In this document: positions 21,986 to 43,182 of the stretch, piece by piece
Layout: every line of letters begins with the position of its first letter
Numbering within the stretch: the stretch's first letter is position 1
Assembly (NCBI GenBank): GCA_963640485.1
Contig: CAVHZP010000001.1
Coordinates: forward strand, 1 to 49,296
Direction: 5' to 3'
Source of the DNA: a bacterium
Lineage (GTDB): Bacteria; Bacillota; Negativicutes; Veillonellales; Dialisteraceae
Length of the DNA: 49,296 bases
Translations under genes and position numbers: made by a program
The notes under the pieces: model-generated
Database searches by the model: none
The model's input: only the letters and a program-made list of their open reading frames with translations
Told to the model about the DNA's origin: nothing

Positions 21986-22231
21986 CGCTATCGGTTTTGT
22001 AGTCGGTAGTCGGTAGCCGGTAGTCAGGGCGCGTTTGGTTGCTGGTTCATATGGGATTATTACCGCAAGTGGTGGCATTATGTATCGCTGGCAGCAACTG
22101 CGTCCTAACCGCGGACTACCAATTTTCTAAGCATCATCCAGCCTGGGGCCACCTTCTTCAGGGAAGAAGGCAAATAGAAGAAGCAGGCAAATGTGGCCTG
22201 ACTACTGATTACTAATTACTGATTACTAAAC
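21986..22231. repeat. Heptamer-arm foldback element, copy E1
   Basis: Left arm CGCTATCGGTTTTG(TAGTCGG)2 TAGCCGG TAGTCAG GGCGCGTTTGG (21986-22038); inverted right arm CAAATGTGGC CTGACTA CTGATTA CTAATTA CTGATTA CTAAAC (22188-22231). Confidence 0.85.
22131..22184 (+). repeat. REP-like module GCATCATCC...CCACCTTCTTCAGGGAAGAAGGC nested in E1
   Basis: Near-identical to 22925-22979 (2 substitutions and 1 indel); contains hairpin CCTTCTTC-AGG-GAAGAAGG. Confidence 0.85.
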
Positions 22232-22281
22232 AAAAAAGGGAGTACCGAAATGATGACTCATTTCGTTACTCCTTTTTGTTT
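22228..22281. terminator. Bidirectional intrinsic terminator between convergent ctpA and queF
   Basis: AAACAAAAAAGGGAGTACCGAAATGA-loop-TCATTTCGTTACTCCTTTTTGTTT. Confidence 0.8.
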
Positions 22282-22774
22282 ATCTATTATCCACTTTTTC
22301 CGGGTGCATATCATGGCGGAGAAGGCGGTAGCGGGCGAAGTCGCGCCACTCGGTGCCTGGGATGCCGTAGTTGCAGTAGGGGTCGATGGAGAGGCCGCCT
22401 CTAGGGAGGAATTTGCCCCAGACTTCGATGTAGCGGGGGCGGAGGAGTTTGATGAGGTCGGTCATGATGATGTTCACGCAGTCTTCGTGAAAGTCGCCGT
22501 GGTTTCTGAAGGAGAAGAGGTAGAGTTTCAGGGATTTGCTTTCTACCATGTACTGGTCGGGAATGTAGGAAATGTAGATGGTAGCAAAGTCGGGCTGCCC
22601 GGTCTTGGGGCAGAGGCTGGTGAATTCGGGGCAGTTGAATTTTATGAAGAAGTCTCTGTCAGCGTGTTTGTTGGGGATTTTCTCCAAGAGGTTCGGGTTG
22701 TAGTCGTAGGTGTATTTGGTGTTCTGATTTCCCAGCTGTTTGAGCTGGTCTAATCCTTCACGGGTTTCGGACAT
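22280..22774 (-). CDS. queF: NADPH-dependent preQ0 reductase (unimodular QueF)
   Basis: [42 protein letters not shown] motifs. Confidence 0.97.
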
Positions 22775-22795
22775 GGGAGTATTTCCTTTCTTTGT

Positions 22796-23029
22796 TGGTT
22801 TGAGGGATAGGGGATAAGGGATAAGGGATAAGGCGCATTTGACTGATTAATCCAATATTCTAAGCCTTCTTCTCTGAAGAGGGTGCCCGTAGGGTGGGTG
22901 ATGCTTCACTCCTCACTTTCGTAGGCATCATCCGGCCTGGCGGCCACCTTCTTCAGGGAAGAAGGCAAATCGAAGAAGCCGCTAAACGCGTCCTTATCCC
23001 TTATCCCCTATCCCTTATCCCTAATAAAC
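22796..23029. repeat. Heptamer-arm foldback element, copy E2 (GGGATAA variant) enclosing two inverted REP-like modules
   Basis: (RGGGATA)4 AGGCGCATTTGA at 22803-22842 and AAACGCGTCC(YTATCCC)4 TAATAAAC at 22984-23029; inner inverted modules at 22864-22904 and 22925-22979. Confidence 0.85.
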
Positions 23030-23031
23030 AG

Positions 23032-24609
23032 TTAAATTTTCTTCGCCGCTTCCATCAGCTGGTTTTCATTGTTGCTTCCGGGGAACCATTGGATGCGGAG
23101 GGGGATGTGGAAGGTTTTTTCGAAGTCTTTCAGAAGGTGGCCGGTGGCGTGGGCGGGGACGTCGAAGTTTTCCAGGTTGGTGTAGATGCGCAGGTCCATG
23201 GCGTGGGAGCAGGAGGTGCAGACGAGGCGGGTGATGGAGTGTTCCTGGCTTTCGTCGAGGCCTTCAGCGAGGGCGAGGAAGAGGGAGAGCATGCGTACCT
23301 GGCGCATTTGCGCGGCGGTCAGGATGTGGGCCTGGCCATTGGCTTTCAAATATTTCCCGGAGTAGCCGTGGTGGAAGGCACAGATGAGGGAGCACATGAC
23401 TTGTTCGCTGTGGGACCAGCCGAAGATGTGGGCGTTGGCGGCCATGTAGGCACTGTGGCGGGCGTGGCTGTAGTAGTTGATCAGATTTCCTATGTCATGA
23501 AGGAGGGCGGCGGCGGTGAGGATGTCGCGCATGCGGCGGTCCAGGCCATGGACTTTCTGCCACTGGTCGAAGAGGGAGAGGGCCATGGCGGTGACGTAGT
23601 GGGTGTGGAAGGTGTATTCCATGGGCAGGGTGTCCAGGTAGTTTTGGACGGAGCTTTGGAGCATGTCTTTTTCCCGGTGGCCGTCATTGTCGTAGAGGGG
23701 GTCGTAGTAGTGGAAGAAGAGTCCTTCTCGGAGGCCGCAGCCGGAAATGGTGAGGTAGGGGGCTTTGGCTTTGCGGATGATTTCCTGTACCACCAGGGCG
23801 CCGGCGACGATGATGTCAGCCCGTTCACTGGAGAGGCCGCTGATTTTCTGGCGTTCTTCGTAGGTTTTGCTGGTGATCATGCGGACTTCTTCGAAAAGGT
23901 CTTCCACCGGGAAATGGTAGTTATGAAGTTTCGGCAGGGGGTAGTTCACGGCGCGCTGGTGGATTTTCGCCAGGTTGCGCACGGTGCCGCCGATGCCGAT
24001 GACTTCCATGGGGACGGTGGGGAACCAGTCGATCTTGGCGAGGACGCCCTGGATGAAATTTTTCATTTCCGTCAGCTTTTCGGCGGTCACATTGCCGGAG
24101 GACTGGAACATTTCCGTCAGCGTCACGGCGCCGATGGGGATGCTGATAGAGCGGATGCGTTTCTTGTCTTTCACCAAAGTGATTTCTACGCTGGCACCGC
24201 CCAGGTCGAAGAGGAGGAAATCTTTCTTATCAATGGTGTGGATGACACCGGAAAATCCCAGGGCTGCTTCGGCTTTGCCGCTGATGATGGTCATGGGGAT
24301 GCCGGTAGAGAGGCGCACACGTTTCAGGAAGGAGGCGCCGTTCACGGCGTTGCGCACGGCAGCGGTGGCGACGGCGAGGACTTTCTTGATGTGCTGCACT
24401 TCGATGATGTGGGCGTAGACGGAAAGGCAACGAAGTGCCCGCTGCTGCGCTTCTTCGGTGAGGATGCGGGTGGAGAGGGTCATGCCTTCGGCAAGACGGA
24501 TGGATTTCTTTTCCTGGTAAATGAGCTTGTAGGCGCCGTGTTCTCCGATCTGCATGATGATGAAGCGGATGGAGTTGGAGCCAAGGTCAATGATGGCGAT
24601 GCGTTCCAT
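23032..24609 (-). CDS. ppx: Ppx/GppA-family exopolyphosphatase with C-terminal HD-like domain
   Basis: AIIDLGSNSIR, ATAAVRNAVN, DLGGASVE, GIGGTVRNLA, RADII, GLREG, AALLHDIG. Confidence 0.93.
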   Translation of the reverse strand: MERIAIIDLGSNSIRFIIMQIGEHGAYKLIYQEKKSIRLAEGMTLSTRILTEEAQQRALRCLSVYAHIIEVQHIKKVLAVATAAVRNAVNGASFLKRVRLSTGIPMTIISGKAEAALGFSGVIHTIDKKDFLLFDLGGASVEITLVKDKKRIRSISIPIGAVTLTEMFQSSGNVTAEKLTEMKNFIQGVLAKIDWFPTVPMEVIGIGGTVRNLAKIHQRAVNYPLPKLHNYHFPVEDLFEEVRMITSKTYEERQKISGLSSERADIIVAGALVVQEIIRKAKAPYLTISGCGLREGLFFHYYDPLYDNDGHREKDMLQSSVQNYLDTLPMEYTFHTHYVTAMALSLFDQWQKVHGLDRRMRDILTAAALLHDIGNLINYYSHARHSAYMAANAHIFGWSHSEQVMCSLICAFHHGYSGKYLKANGQAHILTAAQMRQVRMLSLFLALAEGLDESQEHSITRLVCTSCSHAMDLRIYTNLENFDVPAHATGHLLKDFEKTFHIPLRIQWFPGSNNENQLMEAAKKI

Positions 24610-24733
24610 AGGTTCTCCTTACGTTTTTCTTGTTGTAGTTAAGAATAGCTTTTGCTTTCGATATGTAATTCTATTTTACAACATAGTTGCATTTATGAAA
24701 AGGAGAGATGGATTTCCTAAAAGAGGGGTTTTG

Positions 24734-24742
24734 TGATATACT
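24734..24742 (+). promoter_or_regulatory. Putative extended -10 promoter for the cydB-like gene
   Basis: TGnTATACT (TGATATACT), placed upstream of repeat E3 and the ORF. Confidence 0.45.
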
Positions 24743-24756
24743 TTGTAGGAAATAAA

Positions 24757-24888
24757 GATTTAGTAATCGGTAGTCAGTGGTCAGTAGCCGGTAGCTGGAG
24801 ACAGTTGGAGACAATAGCGAACGCGACTGGCGGATAGCGGAAAACACACCTGACCACTGACTACCGATTACCGACTACCGACTACTTT
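24757..24888. repeat. Heptamer-arm foldback element, copy E3 (in the probable 5' UTR of the cydB-like gene)
   Basis: GATTTAG TAATCGG TAGTCAG TGGTCAG TAGCCGG ... CCTGACCA CTGACTA CCGATTA CCGACTA CCGACTA C. Confidence 0.85.
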
Positions 24889-24906
24889 TTCAAATGGAGG
24901 ATACAT

Positions 24907-25818
24907 ATGGATTCGAATGTGCTTTTGGCACCCCTTGGATTTTTAGGAATGTATATGCTCTTGGAGTCTTGCGACTGGGGGCTTTCTTTGGCGGCTCCGT
25001 TCGCTTGTAGAAATCAGGAGGAGAATGAGGCGGTGCTGGGCGTCATGAAGCCGGGCATCGATGGCAATGAAGCTTGGTTTTTCCTGGGGCTGGTGCTCAT
25101 GGGGGCGGCGGTGCCCATCGCCGGCGGCGTATCACCATTTCCTGTGGCTCTTTTGATGGGGCTTGTAGGGCTCGGCGCGTTGCTTCGTATCGCCGGCTGC
25201 TATGGCAGGAAATCTTTGGGATCCTCTCTTGTAATGAAGGGGCTCTGCGCTTTTTCTGTGATTTCCATGGGTGCCTTGGGACTTTTCGCCGGTTCCCTCG
25301 TTTCTGAGGACGGCGGTATGCTCTCTGCTTTGGGCATTGTGAGTGCGCTGTGGTGCATTCTCGCCGCGTTCCAGGTGGGCGCTCTCTTTGGGGCAGCGAA
25401 AATAGTGAATCCTTTGGGCGAACGGTTCCGCGCAGCGTTCCTGGTTTCCTCTGTGCTGAGTCTGGTGCTCTTCCTTGCCACCGCTATGGTTTTAGGTGGC
25501 GCAGTAGGGGATGTGCCTTTCTTCTGGGCAGGGCTCGGTCTTTCGGTGGTGCTTCAGGTGGCTGCATTCTTCCTCACCCGTATGCGTCAGGTGATGGCAG
25601 GGCTCGCGGCTTTGTATGTTTCCTTCGCCGCTTCGCTGGCCCTTTACTTTGCGGGCATCGGCGCGGGCATGGAAAAAATTCACGGCGCTCATCTCGCTTC
25701 GACAGGTGCGGAACCGGATACCATGATCTTGGCAGCCGTCACCGGCTGGACGGTGGCTGTTTTCCTGTGGCGCCTTTCCCGTAAGAAGGAAAGCTATGAG
25801 TGGAAGGATCACATTTGA
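24907..25818 (+). CDS. Divergent cytochrome bd oxidase subunit II (CydB)-like membrane protein
   Basis: YMLLESCDWGLSLAAPF...PGIDGNEAWFFLG resembles the CydB N-terminal 'LDGFDFGVG...PHWDGNEVWL' signature; about 8-9 hydrophobic helices; GGAGG RBS. Confidence 0.65.
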   Translation: MDSNVLLAPLGFLGMYMLLESCDWGLSLAAPFACRNQEENEAVLGVMKPGIDGNEAWFFLGLVLMGAAVPIAGGVSPFPVALLMGLVGLGALLRIAGCYGRKSLGSSLVMKGLCAFSVISMGALGLFAGSLVSEDGGMLSALGIVSALWCILAAFQVGALFGAAKIVNPLGERFRAAFLVSSVLSLVLFLATAMVLGGAVGDVPFFWAGLGLSVVLQVAAFFLTRMRQVMAGLAALYVSFAASLALYFAGIGAGMEKIHGAHLASTGAEPDTMILAAVTGWTVAVFLWRLSRKKESYEWKDHI

Positions 25819-25840: not shown

Positions 25841-26008
25841 ATGATGGGAGAATTGTATAAAACCCAGCATACCATTGACGAAATGCTGGACCGTATGGGC
25901 GTGAAAATCGTATTGGACTCGGAACACTTGAGCGAAGAGGATCGTTTCGAAGCAGAGAAACAGGGCTCTTCGGTGGTGCTGAAAAAGGTGGAAAAGAAGG
26001 AAGAATAA
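25841..26008 (+). CDS. Small hypothetical protein, 55 aa (below the ORF-track cutoff)
   Basis: RBS GAGGTG at 25833-25838; MMGELYKTQHTIDEMLDRMGVKIVLDSEHLSEEDRFEAEKQGSSVVLKKVEKKEE; followed directly by a terminator. Confidence 0.75.
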   Translation: MMGELYKTQHTIDEMLDRMGVKIVLDSEHLSEEDRFEAEKQGSSVVLKKVEKKEE

Positions 26009-26050
26009 AAAAACGGCGATTTCCGCAGGAGGCGGGAATCGCCGTTTTTT
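26007..26050 (+). terminator. Intrinsic terminator
   Basis: AAAAAACGGCGATTTCCGC-loop-GCGGGAATCGCCGTTTTTT. Confidence 0.85.
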
Positions 26051-26061
26051 AGTGCTACTGC

Positions 26062-26283
26062 CGCTGGTGCGAACATGTTGCTGTAGCTCCTAGCTCCTAG
26101 CTGCTGGCTTCTAGCCGGATAGAGAAACATCTCACGCATCCCGCGATTAGTGGAAGCGGGAAATAGTTTGCTTACCGCGCTAATTGCGTAAGTTTTACGC
26201 GCATAGCGCTTAGCGGTGAGTCTGTCGTACTAGCTGACTAGCAGCCAGCAGCCAGGAGCTACAGCACCATGTACGCACCAGCG
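26062..26283. repeat. Heptamer-arm foldback element, second subfamily (TAGCTGC-type), copy E4
   Basis: CGCTGGTGCGAACATGTTGCTG TAGCTCC TAGCTCC TAGCTGC TGGCTTC TAGCCGG ... inverted ...TAGCAGCCAGCAGCCAGGAGCTACAGCACCATGTACGCACCAGCG; homologous to 45505-45747. Confidence 0.85.
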
Positions 26284-26290
26284 TAGGCTA

Positions 26291-26349
26291 ACCTCCGCCC
26301 TTCGGCCCCTCCCCCCCTTCCAGAGGAAGTGGGGGGAGGGGCCGAAGGC
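26291..26349. repeat. GC-rich palindromic (REP-like) hairpin
   Basis: CCTTCGGCCCCTCCCCCC...GGGGGGAGGGGCCGAAGG long stem. Confidence 0.7.
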
Positions 26350-26352
26350 TCT

Positions 26353-26394
26353 AAAAAAGCGTGAACATCTCTCGCAAAGATGTTCACGCTTTTT
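26353..26394 (-). terminator. Intrinsic (bidirectional) terminator after the dnaX-recR-bofA operon
   Basis: AAAAAAGCGTGAACATCT-loop-AGATGTTCACGCTTTTT. Confidence 0.85.
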
Positions 26395-26396
26395 GG

Positions 26397-29644: not shown

Positions 29645-29812
29645 GGTTTAGTGGTCAGTAATTAGTAATTAGTAGTCAGGGCGCATTTGACGGCTTTTCC
29701 ACATATCTCGATAACCTGATATATAGGGAAAAACGTTAGACATAATCTGCTTATAACTGCTGGTCACCGATTGTGACTCTAATTACTGACTACTGATTAC
29801 TGACCACTAGAT
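29645..29812. repeat. Heptamer-arm foldback element, copy E5 (between ffs and dnaX)
   Basis: GGTTTAG TGGTCAG TAATTAG TAATTAG TAGTCAG GGCGCATTTGA ... CTAATTA CTGACTA CTGATTA CTGACCA CTAGAT. Confidence 0.85.
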
Positions 29813-30069: not shown

Positions 30070-30356
30070 ACCGCTGGTGGTTTAGTGATCAGTAATCAGT
30101 GGTCAGTAATCAGGAGTTAGAGACAGTTGGAGGCAATGAGAAATGCGGGAGCTAGTGGTTTAGTAATCAGTAATCAGTGGCCAGAAGCCAAACGCGTCCT
30201 GACTACTGACCACTGATTACTGATTACTAAAATTGATAGCGGAAAAATGCAAAAAGGGTCAGAAGCCAAATGCGTCTCGACTACTGACTACCGATTACAA
30301 AATCAATAGCGGGAGTATCACTAATAGGGGCAATGGGTAAACGCGCCCTGATTACT
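30070..30356. repeat. Cluster of five heptamer arms (E6) at the left edge of the MerR/TBDR cassette
   Basis: Forward arms 30070-30115 and 30151-30184; reverse arms 30186-30243 and 30263-30313; truncated reverse arm 30339-30356 abutting the merR stop. Confidence 0.85.
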
Positions 30357-32222: not shown

Positions 32223-32329
32223 GCTATCGGTTTAGTAGTCAGTGGTTAGTAATCGGTAGTCGGTTACCTGATAAGCAGGGGAAACGTTCGCGCGTCATTT
32301 TGCACCTGGAACCCCGAACCTTGAACCCA
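32223..32329. repeat. Single heptamer arm (E7) plus a GAACCYY heptamer run
   Basis: GCTATCGGTTTAG TAGTCAG TGGTTAG TAATCGG TAGTCGG (32223-32263); GCACCTG GAACCCC GAACCTT GAACCCA (32302-32329). Confidence 0.75.
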
Positions 32330-32432: not shown

Positions 32433-34598
32433 ATGAAGAAAGGGAATTATGTAGCACTGGCTGCGGCCATATTATTGACAATTTCTGGGGGGGTAACGCT
32501 TAGAGCAGCGGATACAACGGTGACGCAGCTGGCAGAAGTGGTAGTTATTGGCGATAGAGATAAAGAAAGAGAAGTGCTTCCGGGGGATTTCGTTTACACA
32601 AAATCGCAGACAGGCTTTTTATCCGGCAAGAACACCATGGATGTTCCTTTTACACAGACTAACTTTACAGAAAAATCCATGGAAATGTTTGCGGGCCCCG
32701 ATAGACCGATGGATGCTCTTTTGGCTAATTCGCCATCGGTAAGACAGACCGGTTCTATCATTCACGGCGATTTCTTCTTCCGTGGTCTTCGTACCAATGG
32801 CACAAATTTCTATGTAAACAATGTTCCTGGCGTTTTCACACAGTTTAATACTCCGCTTTATCCGGTAGAATCTTTGGAAATGATTTCCGGGCCAAACGTA
32901 GGTATTTATGGCACCGGCGTACAGTACGAAACCACCAATCCCGGCGGCATTATCAGCGTCAAAACCAAAGTGGCTCCTGATGAAGGCGTTTTTGACTATA
33001 CCCAGACGATTTCCGGTCGTGGACTTTGGGGTGAATATATAGATTATGGCGAACGCTTTGGCGATAAGAAAGAATGGGGCGTTCGCATTACCACAGAAAA
33101 TATCAATGGCAAGACTTCTGTGAAGGGAACACAGATCGATGGCCAGGGGATTTTCGCAAACATTGATCACAAATCTGAACACACCAGTGACAATTTGTTC
33201 TTTGGTTATCGCAATTTCCATATTCAGGGCGGCGCTCGTTGGTTTATCCTGGATTCTGCTGCTACGCACTTGCCTCCGGTTCCGAAGGGCGATACAGACT
33301 TTGGCTATGATGGCATGATTAAGGCTACCCATGGCTGGCTTGCAGTTTACAACCATGAACAGAAATTCAATGAACACTGGGACGGCTTTGTTAATTTAGG
33401 TATGCAGAGAAATGACCTGGATCAGAATGTCATGCCAAACGGTGGCAGCGGCTATGGTATTGATGAAAACGGAAATATCAAGGTAACTGCAAAACCGGGC
33501 GGTACACCGCAGGAATACTATTACTGGCAGGTGGGAACCACCGCTCATTACAATACCGGTGATGTGAAGCATGATATTACTCTCTCCTACAATCAGGCTT
33601 GGCGTAACCGGAAAACTGCATGGAATAATGGCAGTGTAACAACCATCGGTACCGGCGATGTATTTACCGGTATTCATCAGACTGCCGCAGCTCCGACTAA
33701 GTTCGATACACGTTGGAGTAATAAGACTCGTGTAAAGAGTTATTCTTTGGTAGACTACATGACTTATGACAAATGGAATTTCATTGTAGGTGTTCATAAG
33801 CATGAAGCAGTATCTAGAGCTTATAGCTATGACAAGGCGGGGTCTCTCAGTGGTGTGGCCAGCACGAAGACAGATGCAACCAGCCCGACTTATGGTTTGA
33901 TTTATCATCCGAATCAGAATCTGTCTATCTATGCCAGCCATTCTGAAAACTTCGATGCAGGTAGTTCGGTAAATACAGCCTATGCAAACTATGGCGATGT
34001 TCTTCCTCCGCTGAAAACAAAACAGAATGAAATTGGTGTGAAATACGAGAAGAATGATCTGCTGTGGACATTGGCTTACTATGACATTAAGCAGGATAAC
34101 CTGATTGGCGTTGCAAAGAGCGGCTACGACAAACTGTTTCAGCAGAGGGATGGGGAAGCCCGTCATAAAGGTGTAGAGCTGACTTTCAATGGAAAAATGA
34201 CCGAAAAGTGGAATGTCTTCGGTGGCGTATCTTACTTGAACGCTAAACAGCGGAAAACAGAGAATGGCACATTGAACGGGAAACGCGTCAATGGTACTTC
34301 TGAATGGACTGGCGTGCTTGGCTTGGAATATAACCCCAATGAACAGTGGAGCATCTTAGGACGTGCTATTTACACCGGCAAATCTCCGATTAAGAATGAA
34401 GCAATCTGGGTAGGAGGATACACACTGTTTGATTTGGGCGCTACTTACAAGACCCATTTCGGAAAAACACCGGCAGAATTGACTTTGATGTGCAACAATG
34501 TCTTTGACAAAGATTATTGGATGGCATCTCGTGGGGCAAACTGGATTTACGCTTCGCTTCCACGTACCTTCACTTTTACTGCAAAACTTCATTTCTAA
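32433..34598 (+). CDS. TonB-dependent outer-membrane receptor (siderophore-receptor-like)
   Basis: Signal peptide, LAEVVVIG TonB-box-like segment, plug motifs (MDVPF, FFRG, VESLEMISGP, PGGIISVKTK), QNEIGVKY, GVEL, NNVFDKDYW...PRTFTFTAKLHF with terminal Phe; start re-called at ATG 32433 behind GAGGAG. Confidence 0.92.
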   Translation: MKKGNYVALAAAILLTISGGVTLRAADTTVTQLAEVVVIGDRDKEREVLPGDFVYTKSQTGFLSGKNTMDVPFTQTNFTEKSMEMFAGPDRPMDALLANSPSVRQTGSIIHGDFFFRGLRTNGTNFYVNNVPGVFTQFNTPLYPVESLEMISGPNVGIYGTGVQYETTNPGGIISVKTKVAPDEGVFDYTQTISGRGLWGEYIDYGERFGDKKEWGVRITTENINGKTSVKGTQIDGQGIFANIDHKSEHTSDNLFFGYRNFHIQGGARWFILDSAATHLPPVPKGDTDFGYDGMIKATHGWLAVYNHEQKFNEHWDGFVNLGMQRNDLDQNVMPNGGSGYGIDENGNIKVTAKPGGTPQEYYYWQVGTTAHYNTGDVKHDITLSYNQAWRNRKTAWNNGSVTTIGTGDVFTGIHQTAAAPTKFDTRWSNKTRVKSYSLVDYMTYDKWNFIVGVHKHEAVSRAYSYDKAGSLSGVASTKTDATSPTYGLIYHPNQNLSIYASHSENFDAGSSVNTAYANYGDVLPPLKTKQNEIGVKYEKNDLLWTLAYYDIKQDNLIGVAKSGYDKLFQQRDGEARHKGVELTFNGKMTEKWNVFGGVSYLNAKQRKTENGTLNGKRVNGTSEWTGVLGLEYNPNEQWSILGRAIYTGKSPIKNEAIWVGGYTLFDLGATYKTHFGKTPAELTLMCNNVFDKDYWMASRGANWIYASLPRTFTFTAKLHF

Positions 34599-34605
34599 TT
34601 TTCCT

Positions 34606-34645
34606 AAGGAAACCGGTCGTTTATGGCGGCCGGCTTTCTTTTTAT
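34606..34645 (+). terminator. Probable terminator/stem-loop after the TBDR gene
   Basis: AAGGAAACCGGTCGT-loop-GCGGCCGGCTTTCTTTTTAT imperfect stem with U-tract. Confidence 0.55.
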
Positions 34646-34769
34646 CGAAGGAAAGCGTAGACTTTTAAATAAACAAATGGCCGTTTTCCGGTACAGACAG
34701 GAAACTGGCATCTTGAACTCTATTTCTCGCACAAGCGTTTTTTGAAATAATTGCCGGAGGTGGTCTTCT

Positions 34770-36314
34770 TTGCGGTTTCTTTGGAACATATTGGCAATTC
34801 TCCTCCTCTCTTGTCTTCTCCTCTCCGGTTGCGGAAAGGAGCCGCAGGGGGAGAGGGAAATCGTCCTGGCGGCGGGGCGGGATTTGGCGCCGGGGGAGAA
34901 GGATCCTTACTACTCTACGGTGATTCTGAAGACCTGGGAGTCACTGGTGGGGATTTCTGATGCCGGCGAGGCGATGCCCATGCTGGCCACGTCCTGGGAG
35001 GCGAATCCGGAGAAGACGGAGTGGATTTTTCACTTGCGGGAAGGCGTTTCGTTCCAGGATGGTGAGCCCTTCGATGCGGAAGCGGTACTTGCCAATTTCT
35101 ACCGGGTGACCCATATGGGATACAAGCCGTCCTCTTTCTATGGCTACCTGGTGTCCCGCATTTATCCGGGCCTTTTGAAATACGAGGCTGACGATGCGCA
35201 CACGGTGCATCTTTACTTCGAAAAACCGGTGCCCATGCTGATTTACCGCATGGCCGGCTGGGGAAGTGCCATGTTCAGCCCTAAGTGTTTCGACAAGGAA
35301 ACCGGGGATTTTACGAGCATCGCCAAAGGGACGGGGCCTTTTGAAATCGTAGATCGCGTGCCTTATCAGTACACCCTTCTTCAGCGCTTCGAAGGCTATC
35401 ACGGCGAAAAGGCGAAAGCGGAGAAAATCCGCATCCGCGTCATCACCTCGCCGGAGGCGCGGTACTCGGCCATGCGTTCGGGAGAGGTGCAGGGGGTCCT
35501 GGACCTGGGCGGCCTCACGCCTATCATGGCGCGAGATCTTTCCGGGACGGGGGATTTTTCTGTAGACACGGCCCACTCGACGATTTCTCACTATCTATCG
35601 GTCAATGGCGGTCGCTTCCCCTTTAGTGACGAGCGGATGCGAAAGGCTCTGAATCTGGCCATCGACCGGGAAAAGATTGTGAAATATTATTTTGCCGGTT
35701 ACGGCACGCCGACCCGGGGATTTCTGAATAGTACGAATCCTTTTGCCCATGCGGAAAAGCCGGTCTTTGATCCGGCAGAGGCGAAGCGTCTCGCCCGCGA
35801 GGTATTGGGCGATGAGAGGGTCCCGGTGAAATTCCTCCTGCCTCAATACGGCATGGATCGCTATCCCTACAAGGTGATTTCTGAATTCATACAGGCAGAG
35901 CTTTCGGATCTGGGCCTCGATGTGAATATCTGTATGGTCGATGGTTTAAGCTCCCGGAAAATGATGCAGGAAGGGGACTACGACCTCTCCATCGGCACCC
36001 GGGGCCTGGGAAATCTGGACCCCACCTCGCTCCTTCGGGAATTTTTCCATTCTGACGGCGCCACGAATCGTGCCAGCTCCTTCCATTACCAAAATCCCGC
36101 CATCGATGAAGACTTCGCATCTCTGGACTACACCTATGACATCGCCGCCAGGGCGAAACTTTACGACCATATCCAGCAGGAACTTTTATCCCATCCCGCT
36201 GTAGTGCCCCTCCTGGAAGATGAAAACCTGGCGGTCTCTTCGAAAAAATTGGAAGGTTACCGGGCCGCAGTCTACGGGATCACGCTGGATAAGGTGAAGT
36301 GGGCGGATGAGTAG
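34770..36314 (+). CDS. ABC transporter substrate-binding lipoprotein, family 5 (Ni/peptide/opine)
   Basis: TTG start with GGAGGTG RBS, lipobox LSGC, PMLATSWE...FHLREGVSFQDGEPFDAEAV, GTGPF, RKALNLAIDRE. Confidence 0.92.
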   Translation: MRFLWNILAILLLSCLLLSGCGKEPQGEREIVLAAGRDLAPGEKDPYYSTVILKTWESLVGISDAGEAMPMLATSWEANPEKTEWIFHLREGVSFQDGEPFDAEAVLANFYRVTHMGYKPSSFYGYLVSRIYPGLLKYEADDAHTVHLYFEKPVPMLIYRMAGWGSAMFSPKCFDKETGDFTSIAKGTGPFEIVDRVPYQYTLLQRFEGYHGEKAKAEKIRIRVITSPEARYSAMRSGEVQGVLDLGGLTPIMARDLSGTGDFSVDTAHSTISHYLSVNGGRFPFSDERMRKALNLAIDREKIVKYYFAGYGTPTRGFLNSTNPFAHAEKPVFDPAEAKRLAREVLGDERVPVKFLLPQYGMDRYPYKVISEFIQAELSDLGLDVNICMVDGLSSRKMMQEGDYDLSIGTRGLGNLDPTSLLREFFHSDGATNRASSFHYQNPAIDEDFASLDYTYDIAARAKLYDHIQQELLSHPAVVPLLEDENLAVSSKKLEGYRAAVYGITLDKVKWADE

Positions 36315-36402
36315 TCTGATGTCTGATATCTGATATCTGATCATCTTTTGCCAAGGGAAACGCGTCCTGACTACTGACTACCGACCACAAAAATCGACAG
36401 CG
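36315..36402. repeat. TCTGATA heptamer run plus one reverse arm (E8) inside the ABC operon
   Basis: TCTGATG TCTGATA TCTGATA TCTGATC (36315-36342); AAACGCGTC CTGACTA CTGACTA CCGACCA CAAAAATCGACAGCG (36358-36402). Confidence 0.8.
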
Positions 36403-36429
36403 TTTATTTCTACCATCACAGGAGTCCCT

Positions 36430-37365
36430 ATGAAGCGCTTATTTCTTTACGCCGCCACGCGGCTGTTGCTTGTATTTCCTTTCCTCATCGGCCTCACGGT
36501 GCTGGCCTTTGCCTTGGGTGTATTGGCGCCGGGAGATCCGGCTTTGGCGGTATTGACTATGGATGGGGCCGCGGAACCGACGGCAGAGGAGCTCTCGGCC
36601 ATGCGGAGCCAGCTGGGGCTGGACAGGCCTTATGGGATGCAGTATCTTTCCTGGCTGGCCCAGGCGCTTTCCGGGGATTTGGGGATTTCCTATCTCACCC
36701 ACAAGCCGGTGCTTTCAGAGCTTTTGCAGCATCTGCCGGTGACATTTCACCTGGCGCTGTGGGCCATGGGCTGGGTGCTGCTCCTGGGCATCCCCGGCGG
36801 GCTGTGGGCGGCGCGGCGGCAGAATTCTCATCCGGAGATGGGCCTCCGGCTGCTATCGCTGTTCTTTATTTCCGTGCCTTCTTTCTGGCTGGCTATCCTT
36901 TTGATGCTCCTTCTCTCGGAAGAGTGGCAGGTCCTTCCGTCTTCGGGCTACGGCGCCTGGCAGCAGATGGTGATGCCCTCCTTTGTTCTGGCGGCCGGGA
37001 CGGCAGCGGCGACGCTGCGGTTGGAACAGACGGCGGTGCTGGAGGTGATGGAGAAGCCTTTCATTCTGACAGAACGGGCGAAGGGGCTTCCTATGTCCTA
37101 CATCGAGCGCCGCCACGTGCTGCCGAATGCGCTGATGCCGGTGATCACCATGGTGGGTACCTATTTCGGCTCCATCCTCGGCGGTTCGGTGATTGTGGAG
37201 AATTTATTTTCCTTCCCCGGCCTGGGGAGTTATGTGCTGGCGGCCATCTGGGGGCGGGACTATCCGGTGATCCAGGGCTATGTGCTGGTGAGTGGGACGA
37301 TTTTCATTTTCTTTAATTATCTGGTGGATCTTTCATACTATGTGCTGAGCCCGAAGGGGAAGTGA
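36430..37365 (+). CDS. ABC permease (NikB/DppB-like)
   Basis: APGDPA, LGLDRPYGMQYLSWL, GDLGIS, EAA-like loop AKGLP...HVLPNA, RDYPVIQG. Confidence 0.93.
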   Translation: MKRLFLYAATRLLLVFPFLIGLTVLAFALGVLAPGDPALAVLTMDGAAEPTAEELSAMRSQLGLDRPYGMQYLSWLAQALSGDLGISYLTHKPVLSELLQHLPVTFHLALWAMGWVLLLGIPGGLWAARRQNSHPEMGLRLLSLFFISVPSFWLAILLMLLLSEEWQVLPSSGYGAWQQMVMPSFVLAAGTAAATLRLEQTAVLEVMEKPFILTERAKGLPMSYIERRHVLPNALMPVITMVGTYFGSILGGSVIVENLFSFPGLGSYVLAAIWGRDYPVIQGYVLVSGTIFIFFNYLVDLSYYVLSPKGK

Positions 37366-37368
37366 CCT

Positions 37369-38196
37369 ATGAGAAGACATATACATCCGATCTATGTGGC
37401 CGCCTTTTTCGTGATGGTGGGGATCATTGGCGCGGCGCTTCTGGCGCCCTGGATTTCTTCCTATGATCCTATCGCCGTGTCGGTGGAGGAAATCCTGGAG
37501 GAACCCTCCGGCAATCACTGGCTGGGCACTGACGCGCTGGGACGGGATATCCTCTCCCGCACGCTCTACGGTGCGCGGACATCGGTGGCTTTTGCCTTCG
37601 TGGCGGCGTGCTGCACCATGGTGGTGGGGCTCTCACTGGGGATTCTGTCGGGCTATTTCGGCGGCTGGGTGGATAAGACGATTCAGGTATTGGTCTGCGT
37701 TTTTCAGGGGCTCCCGGGCATGAGCCTCATGATTGCCATCGCGGCGATTCTGCCGGAGAATCATTTCCGCATCATCATCGCTTTGACGCTCACATCATGG
37801 ACGGGATTTTCCCGCATCGTCCGAAGTGAAGTGATTCGCATCCGCGGAGAGACCTACATGGAAAGCATCCGCGCTTTGGGTGCCGGTCATGGCTATATCC
37901 TTCGGCGCTATGTGCTGCCGAACGTGCTTCCCACAGTGGTGGTGCTTTTGACTCTTCGCATCGGAACGTCGCTTCTCTCGGCGTCGGCGCTGTCGTATCT
38001 GGGACTTGGCATTTCTCCGCCGGCAGCGGACTGGGGCGTCATGATTGCCGATGCCAGGACTTATTTCCGCGCCTATCCCTGGATGATTTTGGCGCCGGGA
38101 CTGGGGATTACCCTTTTCTGCATGTCCATCAATTTGCTGGGCGATGCGTTGCGAGACTATTGGAAGGAGCCATCCTATGGATATAGAAATCAATGA
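37369..38196 (+). CDS. ABC permease (NikC/DppC-like)
   Basis: HWLGTDALGRDILSR, LPN, LSYLGLG, DWGVMI, NLLGDALRD. Confidence 0.93.
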   Translation: MRRHIHPIYVAAFFVMVGIIGAALLAPWISSYDPIAVSVEEILEEPSGNHWLGTDALGRDILSRTLYGARTSVAFAFVAACCTMVVGLSLGILSGYFGGWVDKTIQVLVCVFQGLPGMSLMIAIAAILPENHFRIIIALTLTSWTGFSRIVRSEVIRIRGETYMESIRALGAGHGYILRRYVLPNVLPTVVVLLTLRIGTSLLSASALSYLGLGISPPAADWGVMIADARTYFRAYPWMILAPGLGITLFCMSINLLGDALRDYWKEPSYGYRNQ

Positions 38197-39094
38197 TTTG
38201 TCCGTGTCTTTCGGCTCTTCCCAAGTGTTGCGTCACGCGAGCCTCTATCTTTCGCAAGGAAAAATCACGGCGCTGGTGGGGGAGTCGGGGAGCGGAAAAT
38301 CCATCCTCGGCGCTGCGGTGATGCAGCTTTTGCCGGAGAAAGCCGACATAAGCGGGCAGATTTCCTTTGGCGGGAGAAATCTGCTTTCTCTTTCGGAAAA
38401 AGAAATGGAATCGGTGCGGGGGAAGGAAATCGGTTGGATCGCGCAGGATCCCATTTCTGCCATGGACCCGCTCTTTTCTGTGGGGCAGCAGGTGATGGAG
38501 CGGGCTCACTATGATATGCCAAGGCCCAAGCGCGAGGAAAAGGAAATTGGCATAGCGCAGCTCCTTCGATTCGGCTTGCCCCGGGCGGAGCGGGTTTATC
38601 ATATGAAGCCCCACGAACTCTCTGGCGGCATGGCGCAGCGAGTTATGGCGGCCATGATGGCCATGCCCCGGCCGTCCTGGATCATTGCCGATGAACCTAC
38701 CAAGGGCCTCGACGCCTTCGTGCGCCGGGAAGTGTGCGAGGTTTTCCGCAAACTTCGAGATGAGGGGATTGGCTTTCTCCTCATTACCCACGACCTTCGG
38801 CTGGCGGAGCGGCTCTCTGACGAGACTGCCATCATTTATGCCGGGGAAATTCTGGAAAAGGGACCGACCCGGGAAATCTTCGCCCATCCCCGCCATCCTT
38901 ATACGGTAAGCTTTTTCGATGCGTCTCCGAGGCGTGCTCTTCGTCCCATCCCCGGCACGCCGCCGGATTTGTCGCAGATTCCTCAAGGCTGCATTTTCAA
39001 AGAGCGCTGTCCCTATGCCGATTGCGATGGAAAGGTAGAGGCGCGGGAAATTTCCGGCCACTGGATGAAGTGTCAACACAGAGAGGGAAGGTGA
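38177..39094 (+). CDS. ABC ATPase (NikD/DppD-like)
   Basis: GESGSGKS, PHELSGGMAQR, IADEPTKGLD, HPYT, C-terminal Cys cluster (GCIFKERC...C...C); start re-called at ATG 38177 behind AAGGAG. Confidence 0.93.
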   Translation: MDIEINDLSVSFGSSQVLRHASLYLSQGKITALVGESGSGKSILGAAVMQLLPEKADISGQISFGGRNLLSLSEKEMESVRGKEIGWIAQDPISAMDPLFSVGQQVMERAHYDMPRPKREEKEIGIAQLLRFGLPRAERVYHMKPHELSGGMAQRVMAAMMAMPRPSWIIADEPTKGLDAFVRREVCEVFRKLRDEGIGFLLITHDLRLAERLSDETAIIYAGEILEKGPTREIFAHPRHPYTVSFFDASPRRALRPIPGTPPDLSQIPQGCIFKERCPYADCDGKVEAREISGHWMKCQHREGR

Positions 39095-39098
39095 GGTT

Positions 39099-39848
39099 AT
39101 GGATGTATTGGAAGTGAAAAATATCTCCGTCAGCTTTTCTCACGGCCTTATTTTTAAAGAAAAGCGGGAAGTGCTTCACCATATTTCCTTTGCCGTGCAA
39201 GAAGGGGAGCTCCTGGGGCTGGCGGGTACCAGCGGCGCCGGAAAATCTACCCTCTCCCGCGTCCTTATGGGGCTTCGGCAACCCGATGAAGGGGATGTGC
39301 TGCTAGACGGGATCTCTCTTCTCGGCGCAAAAGGGAGAGGTGCGCGGCATCAGGTGCAGATGCTTTTTCAAAATCCCGCAGCGGCGTTGCATCCCCGCAT
39401 GACCATCGGTGAATCCATGAAAGAACCCTTCCGTCTCCATGGTGGTTATAGCAGGGAGAAAATTGAGGAAATATGGGAGGACCTGCAGTTGCGGAAAGAG
39501 CTTTGGACCCGCTACCCCTCCCAACTTTCCGGCGGCGAACTGCAGCGGGTGTGCCTCGGTCGGCTTCTCCTTTTAAAGCCGCGGCTGCTACTCCTGGACG
39601 AGCCCACGTCCATGCTGGACGTCTCCGTGCAGGCACAAGTGATTTCCATCCTGCAGAGGCTTCGGGAAAAACACCCCATGGCTTGTCTCTTCATTTCTCA
39701 TGACCTGGACCTCCTGCGCGCTGTGTCCGACCGCATCGGCATCCTGGAAAGTGGCCGTCTCATAGAAATCGCAGAGACCGAAGAACTCTATCGCCATCCG
39801 AAGGAGAAATATACAAAGGAACTGCTGCGGGCGTTTGAGGAATTTTAG
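39099..39848 (+). CDS. ABC ATPase (NikE/DppF-like)
   Basis: GTSGAGKST, YPSQLSGGELQR, LDEPTSMLDVSVQAQ, ISHDL. Confidence 0.93.
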   Translation: MDVLEVKNISVSFSHGLIFKEKREVLHHISFAVQEGELLGLAGTSGAGKSTLSRVLMGLRQPDEGDVLLDGISLLGAKGRGARHQVQMLFQNPAAALHPRMTIGESMKEPFRLHGGYSREKIEEIWEDLQLRKELWTRYPSQLSGGELQRVCLGRLLLLKPRLLLLDEPTSMLDVSVQAQVISILQRLREKHPMACLFISHDLDLLRAVSDRIGILESGRLIEIAETEELYRHPKEKYTKELLRAFEEF

Positions 39849-39853: not shown

Positions 39854-39973
39854 GCCGCTATTGGTTTAGTGATCAGTGATCAGTAGTCGGTGGGCAGTGG
39901 TCGGTAATGGGGCAAGAGCCAAATGCGCCCTGATTACCGATCACTGACTACTGATTACTAAATCGATAGCGGT
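39854..39973. repeat. Heptamer-arm foldback element, copy E9 (compact, at the right edge of the cassette)
   Basis: CCGCTATTGGTTTAG TGATCAG TGATCAG TAGTCGG TGGGCAG TGGTCGG ... CAAATGCGCC CTGATTA CCGATCA CTGACTA CTGATTA CTAAATCGATAGCGG. Confidence 0.88.
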
Positions 39974-40130: not shown

Positions 40131-40520
40131 ATGTTTAATTTACCCGAAAAATATGTTGTCATTGATGGCTTCAAAATCCCCGCAGACAAGGGGGAAGAGT
40201 ACAAGCGTCTCCGCGACAGCATGTCCAAAGCAGCTGATAAATTTTTCCATACCTTTTGTGAAGAAGTGAAGAAGGAAAAGCTTTACGACCTTCTGGGTGA
40301 AGGAATTGTGGGCTATTCTTCTACCGGGGAAATGCTTGCCCGTATTTCCTTAGACCCCTTTGAACTGTCTGCCATGAATGTGGCAAAGCAGAGAAAAGCA
40401 CTGGAGAAATACATGCTCGCGACCAATGGCTATGATGAAGAGGATTACCAGCAGCTTCTGAAGGAATTTAACGAACGGAAAGCTGAGCGAAAAGCGAAGA
40501 AAGAGAATAAAGAAAAATAA
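40131..40520 (+). CDS. Hypothetical protein (129 aa)
   Basis: AGGTG RBS, protein-like composition, first gene of an apparent operon with degV/DAK2; no family recognised. Confidence 0.8.
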   Translation: MFNLPEKYVVIDGFKIPADKGEEYKRLRDSMSKAADKFFHTFCEEVKKEKLYDLLGEGIVGYSSTGEMLARISLDPFELSAMNVAKQRKALEKYMLATNGYDEEDYQQLLKEFNERKAERKAKKENKEK

Positions 40521-40542
40521 CAATAGGAAGGAACATACTGCT

Positions 40543-41376
40543 ATGATTCATTTGATCCTGGACAGCACATCCGGCGTCAGCGAGGATTTTTTAAGGGAGC
40601 ATCCCAATGTGCACATGATCCCGCTCACCATTGAAATTGGAGATGAGTATGTGCCCGAAAACAAGGCCACCATCAAGGCGGTCATTGATCGTTCGGAAGC
40701 CACGAAGAAATCCGTTCCCACCAGCCAGCCCAGCACCGGCGATTTTTTGAAAATGTTTGCAGATATCCCGGCAGAAGACCCGATTATCATGTTGTGCATC
40801 TGTGCGACCATCAGCGGCACTTATAATGGGGCTCTTTTGGCTGCCCGCCAGTCCGGCCGCAAGAATATCACCGTGGTGAATACCAAAACCACCGCCATCG
40901 GCATGATTCACCTGGCGCTGGACGGCTTGGAAATGATTGAAAACGGCGCGTCTTATGAAGAAGTATCCAAGGAACTTTTAGAAGCTGCCGAACGCACCGG
41001 ACTTACTGTCACACTGGATACCCTTGACTATCTGCAGCGTGGCGGCCGCATTGGCCGTGCCGCAGGGCTTATCGGCAGCATTCTCAAGATCAAACCGGTC
41101 ATTTATCTCAATGAAAACAATGAAGTCGATGCATTGGCGAAAGTGCGCACCGCAAAGAAAGCCAATCAGACGATGCTGAAATATTTAGAGGAACGGGCGC
41201 CTTTCAAGCGAATTGGCGTCGTTCATATCGAAAATGAAGAGGGCGGAAAAGCTCTCCATGCTTTGGTTCAAGAACAGTATCCGGATATTGAGGTCACTCT
41301 CACCCTGGCTACTCCTGTTTTGTCAGCTTATCTGGGACCGGGGCTTACAGGAGTCATTTTTGAATGTGCCAAATAG
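40543..41376 (+). CDS. DegV-family fatty acid-binding protein (FakB)
   Basis: ILDSTS, PTSQPS, ISGTYN, TLDYLQRGGRIG, LKIKPVI, LGPG. Confidence 0.93.
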   Translation: MIHLILDSTSGVSEDFLREHPNVHMIPLTIEIGDEYVPENKATIKAVIDRSEATKKSVPTSQPSTGDFLKMFADIPAEDPIIMLCICATISGTYNGALLAARQSGRKNITVVNTKTTAIGMIHLALDGLEMIENGASYEEVSKELLEAAERTGLTVTLDTLDYLQRGGRIGRAAGLIGSILKIKPVIYLNENNEVDALAKVRTAKKANQTMLKYLEERAPFKRIGVVHIENEEGGKALHALVQEQYPDIEVTLTLATPVLSAYLGPGLTGVIFECAK

Positions 41377-41391
41377 TGGGGGGAGAGAACA

Positions 41392-42993
41392 ATGTATACG
41401 GTCATTGATGGGAATTATTTCAAGAATATGCTGATCGGAGCGTACCAGCTATTTGAGAAGAAATATGAAATTATCAACCAGCTGAATGTATTTCCTGTGC
41501 CTGACGGAGATACAGGAAATAATATGCTGAACACGTTGAAATCTATGTACAGCATGATAGCCGATGTAAGCCCCGAAGAACCGGTGGGCATCATCGCAGA
41601 GAAAGCCTCTGCCGGTGCCATCATGGGTGCTCGCGGAAATTCCGGCGTCATTCTGTCGCAGATTATTCACGGCATCAGCCGCGGCCTTCACGGCAAGAAG
41701 ACCGCTTCCTGCGGCCAGATGAGCAAAGCTTTCCAGTACGGCATCCTCTATGCGTACCGCGCTGTTACCAAACCGGTGGAAGGCACCATTCTTTCTGTCG
41801 CTAGAGGCATTGCCAAAGGCACCCACGATGTGTACAAGAGTGAAACCGATTTCAGCAAAATTCTGGAAGCATCCATTGATTCCGGCAACGAAGCGCTGGC
41901 GAAAACGCCGGAGCAGCTGCAGATTCTGAAAGATGCAAATGTAGTCGATGCCGGCGGTCAGGGGCTGATTTTCTTCCTCATGGGTTGCCTGAACGGCCTC
42001 ACCGGGAAAGTGGAAGATATCGAAGTCGATGTGAAACCGGTGATTAGCCGCCTGGAAGCCAAAGGCGAATCCTTCTCCATCGAATATCCCTACTGCACCG
42101 AATTCATCATCAGCCCATGCAAAGTGGAAGCCAGAGAAGTGAGAAAGAAACTTTCCTCCTGGGGCGAATCCATGATCGTAGCAGCCGGCGATAACCTGGT
42201 AAAAGTACATATTCACGCCCAGCGCCCGGGCCACGTGCTCGATATGGCGGCAGACTGGGGCACACTCCACGATATCAAATGCGATAACATGGTGGACCAG
42301 TTCCATAAAAATAAAGAAAAACAGCAGAAAATGGCGAAGAAACCGCTGGGGATTCTCACCGTCGTATCCGGCGAAGGCTGGACAGAGCTCTTCGAAAAGA
42401 TGGGCTGCGATGTGGTTTCCGGTGGCCAGTCCATGAACCCTTCCGTGCAGGAATTATCTGCCGGCATGGAAAATGGACAGTATGAGAAATACATTATTCT
42501 GCCGAACAACAAAAACATTATCCTCGCCGCTCAGCAGCTGAAAAAGATGCTCGGCGAAAAGGTTCATATCGTGCCGTCTACGAACCCCATGGAAGGACTC
42601 ACGGCTGCTATGGCATTCTCCGCAGAAGCAACCATCGAAGAGAATGTGGAAGCCATGACTGCACAGATGGGCGAAATCAAGACCGGCATGATCACTACCG
42701 CTGTACGCGACAGCATTGTCGGCGAATCGGTGATTCATAAAGATGATTTCATGGGTCTGGTGAAAGGCCATGAAGTGATTTCCCTTTCTGATTTCCACGA
42801 ATGCTTTACCGGCGTCCTCGGACTCCTGGTGGACGAAGATACAGAAATCGTAACCATTTACTACGGCGCTGATCTTTCCGAAGAAGACTGCCGCGCTGAA
42901 TTGGACAAAGCAGAAGAACTCTATCCGGATGTGACCTTCGAAATGTACGAAGGCAGCCAGCCGCTGTATCCGATGTTCATCGCTGCGGAATAA
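41392..42993 (+). CDS. DAK2-domain fatty acid kinase subunit (FakA/YloV-like)
   Basis: INQLNVFPVPDGDTGNNM, GARGNSGVILSQ, KPVEGTILSV, VDAGGQG, YCTEF, KVHIH, GGQSMNPS, LPNNKNI. Confidence 0.95.
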   Translation: MYTVIDGNYFKNMLIGAYQLFEKKYEIINQLNVFPVPDGDTGNNMLNTLKSMYSMIADVSPEEPVGIIAEKASAGAIMGARGNSGVILSQIIHGISRGLHGKKTASCGQMSKAFQYGILYAYRAVTKPVEGTILSVARGIAKGTHDVYKSETDFSKILEASIDSGNEALAKTPEQLQILKDANVVDAGGQGLIFFLMGCLNGLTGKVEDIEVDVKPVISRLEAKGESFSIEYPYCTEFIISPCKVEAREVRKKLSSWGESMIVAAGDNLVKVHIHAQRPGHVLDMAADWGTLHDIKCDNMVDQFHKNKEKQQKMAKKPLGILTVVSGEGWTELFEKMGCDVVSGGQSMNPSVQELSAGMENGQYEKYIILPNNKNIILAAQQLKKMLGEKVHIVPSTNPMEGLTAAMAFSAEATIEENVEAMTAQMGEIKTGMITTAVRDSIVGESVIHKDDFMGLVKGHEVISLSDFHECFTGVLGLLVDEDTEIVTIYYGADLSEEDCRAELDKAEELYPDVTFEMYEGSQPLYPMFIAAE

Positions 42994-42997
42994 TGGG

Positions 42998-43048
42998 CAA
43001 TAAAAAAGAGCCAAATGCGTAAATTCGCATTTGGCTCTTTTTTATTGC
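42998..43048. terminator. Intrinsic (bidirectional) terminator after fakA
   Basis: GCAATAAAAAAGAGCCAAATGCG-loop-CGCATTTGGCTCTTTTTATTGC. Confidence 0.88.
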
Positions 43049-43141
43049 GCTTACTAACAATCGGCTTCAAGCGGCGGCATGAAAACTCTTAACCTAACAG
43101 CATTGCATATAGCGGTGGCACGGGCATGTGGGACTGGTGGA

Positions 43142-43182
43142 AAATGCGTCCTGACTACCGACTACTAAACTACCAGCGGTAA
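43142..43182. repeat. Single reverse heptamer arm (E10) upstream of the argR promoter
   Basis: AAATGCGTC CTGACTA CCGACTA CTAAACTACCAGCGGTAA; reverse complement nearly matches the 30068-30085 terminus. Confidence 0.8.

Follow-up and report, generated by a model that had tools for sequence, protein, structure and literature searches.

Tandem arrays of seven- or eight-nucleotide units, paired on opposite strands between genes, have been described in distant bacteria. In Geobacter metallireducens, classes 1-3 of the ‘predicted global regulator binding sites’ consist of three to five tandem 7-8-mers, classes 1 and 2 being paired on opposite strands; there are 16-48 sites per class, they were read as IHF/HU sites, and insertion sequences land nearby (PMC2700814). 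In Xanthomonas, GGGAATC repeats, about 185 in number and with 70-75 convergent inverted pairs per genome, have been given a G-quadruplex reading (PMC4692102). Here we describe a dispersed family of foldback elements in a stretch of 49,296 nucleotides from a bacterium of the Dialisteraceae (assembly GCA_963640485.1, contig CAVHZP010000001.1, positions 1 to 49,296; this whole stretch is referred to as the window) and in the genome to which it belongs. Each element has two inverted arms of about four 7-mers with a variable centre between them, and the consensus order within an arm runs from an outer motif through four tandem 7-mers to an inner core. Arms were classified by their units: class A is TAGTCAG, class B GGGATAA, class C CTAGCTG and class D GAGGAGT. 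Our preferred reading, which we place slightly on the probable side, is that of a system resembling REPINs (doublets of repetitive extragenic palindromic, or REP, sequences that form hairpins), in which foldbacks are copied from arm edge to arm edge, overwrite the occupants of a site, and are offshoots of cassettes that encode a four-helix-bundle protein.

The elements share with the G. metallireducens sites tandem arrays paired at variable distance and the presence of several classes per genome, but about 1,900 arms are present here and the units differ; the available text of the G. metallireducens account mentions neither a four-helix gene nor turnover (PMC2700814). With the Xanthomonas GGGAATC repeats they share intergenic heptamer arrays close to gene ends and sequence variation between close species, whereas the Xanthomonas repeats form one G-rich class, for which the accessible parts of the account describe no class replacement and no partner gene. 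As in such paired heptamer or octamer arrays, about four tandem units face each other on opposite strands, mainly between genes. A sequence-only reading of the window had called the family apparently unnamed, which needs qualification, as the same paired four-unit architecture occurs in G. metallireducens (PMC2700814) and Xanthomonas (PMC4692102); the architecture is of an already known kind. REPINs in conserved spaces are known to change type (13 of 20 spaces were mixed in P. chlororaphis; bioRxiv 10.1101/2024.10.14.618302), and REPINs together with their REP-associated tyrosine transposases (RAYTs) resemble the present system in that their inverted units are paired and extragenic, each of several populations has a partner gene of its own, and the type at a conserved space changes. 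By definition, a REP unit is a short palindromic stem-loop whose foot is of the GTAG or CGTC type (PMC3733652), whereas the arms described here are tandem heptamers; neither such a stem-loop unit nor a cognate HUH transposase (RAYT) flanked by repeats was found, and the candidate four-helix partner, unlike a RAYT, has no known catalytic activity. The paired, extragenic, high-copy, type-changing features thus ‘work like’ a REPIN-RAYT system, which does not denote membership.

Intervening sequences of 23S rRNA genes that bear an open reading frame of the S23p/PF05635 family share the protein family and have heptamer repeats beside the gene within inverted ends (PMC4990558). Here, by contrast, the gene is part of a protein operon, and the elements are dispersed without a gene of their own and lie outside rRNA. 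The short tandemly repeated repetitive (STRR) sequences of cyanobacteria are intergenic heptamer arrays that mostly form direct repeats rather than foldback pairs. The TAACTGA repeats of Beggiatoaceae are intergenic heptamer arrays as well, and their unit, read on the other strand, is one base off TAATCAG; unlike the present elements, they form almost entirely direct arrays and not foldback pairs with cores (PMC4679880). Calothrix repeats are cited in PMC4692102. We found no literature account that links PF05635 to dispersed heptamer foldbacks, describes these elements in Dialister, or measures the overwriting of such elements, although subscription journals and supplements (notably that of PMC2700814) may bear on this. 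The present case contributes the saturation of the genome, overwriting measured at chance level, and class-matched paralogues of the four-helix gene.

The assembly under study comprises 2.32 Mb in 360 contigs and is 92.7% complete. Tandem arrays of period 7 numbered 1,671, against 1 and 1 in two block shuffles, while each of the other periods from 4 to 12 gave 29-93 arrays. Patterns for the four classes (that for class A was picked from a data-driven unit census and allows transitions only) matched 1,974 arms, namely 1,229 of class A, 456 of B, 250 of C and 39 of D, whereas shuffled sequence gave 8 and 7. Arms most often have four units (757 of 1,229 class A arms), and adjacent left and right arms lay within 400 bp in 532 of 558 cases (median 110 bp). 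Arms were present in 602 of the 769 intergenic gaps of at least 100 bp, in all gene orientations, the first arm lying a median of 29 nt past the stop codon. Some 1,005 arm clusters together span 152.8 kb, or 6.6% of the genome. The observation from the window that arms avoid coding sequences holds at this scale, with 8 of 1,866 arms within genes called by our own script. The reported absence from the first 21.9 kb is of a different nature: all class A and E2 arms in the window do lie at or beyond 22000, but the family is genome-wide and the absence merely local. Classes did not cluster along contigs (126 of 252 neighbours were of the same class, versus 125.1 by chance). An arm was found within 200 bp of 273 of the 720 contig ends, and the elements probably fragment the assembly. 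Among the 53 genomes of the family, the class A pattern matched 2,176 times in the genome under study and 1,702 and 1,981 times in its two sister genomes (G012 and G055, respectively), but at most 16 times in each of the other 50; a reversed-pattern control gave hundreds of matches in about a dozen other members of the genus, which carry classes of their own.

To compare orthologous sites, we used about 580 kb from the ~2.1-2.2 Mb of each sister, with gaps anchored by gene ends that were 90% identical. Both genomes carried arms in 85 of 206 gaps (G012) and 83 of 216 gaps (G055), neither did in 108 and 119, and 13 and 14 gaps were discordant. The distances from arm to gene correlated between the genomes (rho 0.81-0.88). 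The positions are therefore conserved, but the contents are not. Median centre identity at shared sites was 0.38 (n = 33, G012) and 0.35 (n = 31, G055), as compared to 0.34 and 0.31 for shuffled pairs, whereas arm-free gaps were 0.86 (n = 32) and 0.89 (n = 33) identical. The class was the same at 20 of 51 and 33 of 54 shared sites, against 19.9 and 31.2 expected by chance, and even where both genomes had class A, the arms (identity 0.744 and 0.743) were no closer than random pairs (0.759 and 0.753). For example, the gap between queF and ppx holds class B in the genome under study and unrelated class A elements in the two sisters. The gap at 26008-26396 holds class C here, A in G012, and in G055 a class B element with a nested GGAGCTA element. 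Between dnaX and the signal recognition particle (SRP) RNA gene there is class A here, class B with a nested GGAGCTA element in G012, an unrelated class A in G055, GAGGAGT in the relative G015, and a short gap without arms in several other relatives. The site behind recN (45511-45735) carries class A in G012, and in G055 a class B left arm and a class A right arm on two contigs. In more distant relatives the same sites are short arm-free gaps or hold further classes. Since point mutation cannot yield switches between classes with class-specific cores, the contents have been replaced, and it is likely that intergenic DNA is wholly replaced at fixed sites by elements that overwrite one another in place.

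Simple insertion, for which a comparison of filled and empty sites had been suggested, is not supported; sites are mostly filled in all three genomes. No clean empty site with a precise junction was found in the 22 inspected of the 27 discordant gap comparisons, which mostly reflected degenerate elements missed by the patterns, runs of N, or apparent deletions. Fixed orthologous positions had been taken to speak against mobility. The positions are indeed fixed, but as their contents are not, this supports replacement and not fixation.

Within the genome, 347 of 390 trimmed centres matched elsewhere and 43 were unique; for 214 centres a single other place covered at least 80% of the length, with an identity of at least 90% in 47 of them. 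Above 0.8 bits per base, 83 of 239 centres matched DNA of their own genome, compared with 16 and 37 for equal-sized samples of the sisters. For 19 of 343 centres, as compared with 1.4 expected, the best paralogue was located on the contig of the centre itself. Three near-identical pairs are 0.5-2.1 kb apart, and their identity spans from outer arm edge to outer arm edge between unrelated flanks; likewise, identity beyond the arms was at background in 40 B-B pairs. The view of the elements as non-autonomous, present in many copies and mobile inside the genome is supported. Target duplications, which had been suggested as a hallmark to look for, were absent from 466 elements apart from internal palindromes, and in a small excess of 5-6 nt repeats over shuffled sequence the leading repeat was ACATGT, a palindrome within the ends of class C elements. 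We also considered that the centres might be captured foreign or gene DNA and rejected this for most, given the 347 matches elsewhere in the genome and 8 matches to called genes. Copy-and-replace at the DNA level is thus well supported.

The centres collect passengers: GC-rich hairpins of the type that flanks DUF559 nuclease genes, nested elements of other classes, and an IS5-family MITE (a miniature inverted-repeat transposable element). The nested elements are of GGAGCTA and ACGGTTA type and start right after the core of A or B arms. Insertion at the hairpin apex was considered for these and set aside, as no empty core palindrome was found and the A/B core may be the nested elements' own outer end.

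The one candidate partner that carries matching arms is the four-helix-bundle protein (TIGR02436/PF05635), which the sequence-only reading had listed among several possibilities. A single such gene is present in the genome under study, at C266:2781. A class A mosaic that sits downstream of lon immediately precedes it, and as the contig stops at the stop codon of the gene, arms are seen on the upstream side only. Its product matches PF05635 with an E-value of 3.8e-32 and the PDB structure 2gsc with 5.6e-20; this solved relative is a homopentamer (PMC4990558). Three relatives from Dialister sp. records are 66-67% identical, and two other close relatives with discordant titles have the same lon/engB gene context. 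One locus, L287, is recorded as belonging to a Bacteroidota family yet shows the Dialister-type order lon/four-helix/engB, which is likely a label or binning mismatch and not evidence of transfer.

Four-helix genes occur in 36 of the 53 family genomes. In G055 the orthologue (88% identity) has A arms and a paralogue (70% identity) is enclosed by B arms, while other copies in the sisters have AAGGTTC, GGAGCTA, ACGGTTA and GAGGAGT arms, which are minor dispersed classes; six of the seven classes in the three-genome clade have a four-helix gene with matching arms. Among 48 loci examined in the family, 23 were flanked by arrays to the left and right, with inverted matching units in 17 (shuffle mean 1.5, maximum 7), and among 80 loci from across phyla (five of them Dialister-type) the numbers were 39 and 26. 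For comparison, of the 402 host genes that have arms to either side, only 3 were enclosed in the order left arm, gene, right arm. In a protein tree on which we assigned the unit labels ourselves, a single clade (support 100/99) unites the A, B and GGGATTA/GTGACTA proteins. Arrays also track the gene across the family: in samples of up to 20 kb per genome, 2 arrays were found in 309 kb from all 17 gene-negative genomes, versus 82 in 363 kb from gene-positive ones (23 of 35). In the sisters and relatives, inverted arms of one unit thus enclose or adjoin a PF05635 gene, while the window elements are gene-less. Location within 23S rRNA was seen neither for these, which lie between protein genes and the SRP RNA gene, nor for the gene after lon. 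Based on these data, the elements are probably gene-less offshoots of heptamer-armed TIGR02436/PF05635 cassettes. The array period seems not always to be 7, as one clade of four-helix genes (L042, L044, L053) apparently has 9-mer arms and, by eye, L008 and L010 have 8-mer inverted arrays. A search of five cassette loci against Rfam returned three weak microRNA-model matches far below the cut-off.

The 18 arms at nine loci that had been noted in the window were all recovered at their places, as 16 class A arms and 2 arms at E2 (a one-unit chance match at 5273 was left out). The single grammar proposed for them holds only in part: E2 shares the inner core but belongs to the distinct class B. E7 and E8 are mixed pairs, in which a class A arm faces an arm of AAGGTTC or TCTGATR type. 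Class C, with foldbacks at 26062-26283 and 45511-45735, had been overlooked. The elements are flanked by ordinary host genes, and a search of the window against Rfam gave no match at the gathering score except the SRP RNA. The features are as follows.

21986-22232: E1, class A foldback between an S41 protease gene and queF; arrays 22000-22027 and 22198-22225; GC-rich hairpin module in the centre at 22129-22171
22803-23022: E2, class B foldback in the queF-ppx gap; arrays 22804-22831 and 22994-23021; the centre is a dimer of GC-rich hairpin modules
24757-24886: E3, class A foldback between ppx and a cytochrome bd subunit II-like gene; arrays 24764-24791 and 24850-24884
26062-26283: class C foldback; arrays 26090-26117 and 26235-26255; a GC-rich hairpin comes next, at ~26290-26350
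29645-29812: E5, class A foldback with dnaX on one side and the SRP RNA gene on the other; arrays 29652-29679 and 29779-29806; no paralogue of the centre in the genome
29823-30029, minus strand: large SRP RNA gene (RF01854, 90.5 bits), a host feature and conserved anchor between E5 and E6
30070-30354: E6, mosaic of class A arms; arrays 30086-30113 and 30164-30184 on the left, 30199-30226 and 30284-30304 on the right; an extra one-unit arm at 30348-30354 abuts the end of a merR-type gene
32223-32328: E7, mixed pair; class A left array 32236-32263 against a degenerate AAGGTTC-type right arm at ~32305-32328 (by eye)
36315-36401: E8, mixed pair; TCTGATR-type array 36315-36342 right behind a stop codon, against class A right array 36367-36387
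39855-39973: E9, compact foldback of class A in which both outer termini are present; arrays 39870-39904 and 39930-39957
42999-43047: perfect palindrome of two inner-core motifs between A/T runs
43140-43182, minus strand: E10, lone class A right arm upstream of argR; array 43151-43164
45511-45735: second class C foldback, after recN and beyond the range covered earlier

The palindrome at 42999-43047 looks terminator-like by eye, yet a terminator scan made no call there; it is possibly a co-opted element remnant. At the start of class C left arms (in the window, 26090-26117) stands, in reverse complement, the GGAGCTA unit seen in G012 (locus L002), and comparison of the units suggests that one of these two classes may have arisen from the other by inversion. 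The region 32433-39848 holds a gene for a TonB-dependent receptor and then an operon for an ABC transporter of the peptide/nickel type, preceded by a merR-type regulator and a methyltransferase gene.

In the mechanism we envisage, the small four-helix protein would drive the copying by binding its own 7-mer arrays on DNA and marking or pairing them. An extruded hairpin would be nicked or broken by a host enzyme or a DUF559 nuclease, and the break would be repaired with another element, often a neighbour, as the template. By analogy with the exchange of RAYTs for REPINs, gain or loss of a cassette would shift the dominant 7-mer class of a genome. The broader proposal that S23p/TIGR02436 proteins are specificity factors of a hitherto undescribed class of mobile DNA, each recognising its own 7-mer array and licensing the copying and overwriting of foldbacks without an HUH or DDE transposase, is put forward tentatively, and we regard it as more doubtful than the copying scheme as a whole.

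Several observations weigh against this scheme. Catalysis or DNA binding by the four-helix family is putative, and switches between classes that share no arm sequence are hard to achieve via homology-based conversion alone. No four-helix gene with class C arms was found in the three-genome clade, and the genes for class B and the minor classes were seen in the sisters only, the genome under study being 92.7% complete. The class A gene is flanked and not strictly enclosed, with a closed pair upstream here and two right arms in G055; adjacency alone means little in so saturated a genome, and the matching of arms and proteins could be plain linkage. The association of gene and arrays counts kin genomes, which are not independent, 6 of 23 gene-positive samples were array-free, and the relative G024 has a period-8 inverted array and no TIGR02436 match. 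As to the copying itself, recent full-length copies are mostly of class B (40 of 46 pairs), with centres that share one hairpin family, whereas 35 of 190 class A centres have no paralogue. The same-contig excess stems from a small number of pairs (three reciprocal pairs make up 6 of the 13 queries at 95% identity), and neighbouring near-identical copies may be assembly artefacts.

The strongest competing explanation, which we nonetheless judge unlikely, does without an enzyme: cassettes would seed the arms, hairpin breakage, RecA-type ectopic conversion among ~2,000 arms and template switching would copy them, and the four-helix gene would be a passenger. The local copying bias, the mixed and nested elements, the lack of target duplications and of any transposase tied to arms, and the slightly better pairing of class A arms within than between elements (0.818 versus 0.785) all fit such turnover. 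It accounts poorly for the fixed four-unit mode of the class A arms, for the colonisation of new sites and switches between unrelated classes, and for intact reading frames with class-matched arms. A role for the host, in which mRNA stabilisation, RNase III processing, termination or regulator binding would be selected and any class would suffice, is improbable as the sole explanation but could be a consequence alongside copy-and-overwrite. The sites are conserved, close behind stop codons, and in vitro, RNase III cleaves the Coxiella intervening sequence, which contains heptamer repeats (PMC4990558). All eight window elements that we folded are stable hairpins (z -5 to -14), and the sense strand is marginally the more stable one (mean -77.1 versus -75.9 kcal/mol, 152 of 283 elements, p = 0.04). 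Hairpins selected in mRNA should show G-U mismatches on the sense strand, but no class had an excess of G-U over A-C on the mRNA strand (447/495 in A, 33/53 in B and 17/21 in C). The RNA-structural interpretation that had been built on G-U-compatible variation in the window is therefore not supported, as the variation consists of transitions without strand bias. Moreover, divergent gaps, where transcription is not required, are filled as often (82 of 101) as co-directional ones (445 of 586), and many relatives have no arrays. The elements fold well on either strand with a strand-symmetric sequence signature, and effects on RNA are possible.

It had also been supposed that a mobilising enzyme is encoded elsewhere, with HUH/RAYT, DUF559 and GxxExxY proteins named as candidates that arms might enclose. 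No such enzyme was identified, and none of the three gave a match in the genome under study. That the DUF559 nuclease is the engine, with heptamer arms hitchhiking on its GC-rich hairpins, appears to us a little less probable still than the host role. DUF559 is present in 37 of 53 family genomes, including both sisters, where the genes (L268 in G012, L269 in G055) have their own GC-rich hairpins and stand beside a class A arm (one side was seen in each), and similar hairpins are frequent in centres here, one motif occurring in 89 of 517 elements. Against this, the gene was not found in the genome under study (best tblastn E-value 0.59), the modules are missing from most centres, 1 of 32 other DUF559 loci has a heptamer array within 200 bp, and G047, a complete genome with three DUF559 genes, lacks TIGR02436 and showed no array in 20 kb. 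Least probable, and already largely refuted, is the view that the elements are MITEs of the ordinary kind, whose DDE or HUH transposase is encoded at another place. Their terminal inverted structure and high copy number would fit, and IS5-family and IS3-like genes are present. The IS5-family element (C135:1508-2765) is itself inserted at CTAG inside a class C arm, has different inverted repeats, and has its own abundant MITE, with ~130 matches to its ends genome-wide, one of them at 33-56 of the window. In addition to the lack of target duplications, MITEs do not normally replace content at fixed sites. No transposase lies inside a left-right arm pair in the genome under study, and no RAYT-type transposase was found there. 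The Y1 transposase (PF01797) was absent from this genome and G012, present once without arrays in G055, and found in 17 of the 53 genomes, which are incomplete; none of 30 such loci, as judged from the printed arrays, was enclosed by left and right arms, and 7 had an array nearby. GxxExxY gave no match over the cut-off in the 53 genomes. GIY-YIG matches were a small single-copy gene in all three genomes and long UvrC-sized proteins, and reverse transcriptase occurs here among phage-like genes and was not found in G055 or G001; both were rejected as the enzyme. The reverse transcriptase at C70:1041-1818 possibly belongs to a diversity-generating retroelement.

The cause of the over-representation of heptamer repeats in bacteria and the role of S23p-family proteins are treated as open questions in PMC4692102 and PMC4990558, respectively. 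This clade offers three close genomes, several classes at very high density, and a 70% identical pair of paralogues whose 7-mers differ (GTGATCA-type and GGGATAA), and is well suited to testing both. Whole replacement at fixed sites, while neighbouring gaps keep 86-89% identity, affects gene regulation, genome assembly and the comparison of intergenic regions. If the four-helix protein is the driver, the system would be a transposase-free counterpart of REPIN-RAYT systems, and if proteins of this family act as specificity factors, this would explain the excess of heptamers in many bacteria and give an orphan protein family a function.

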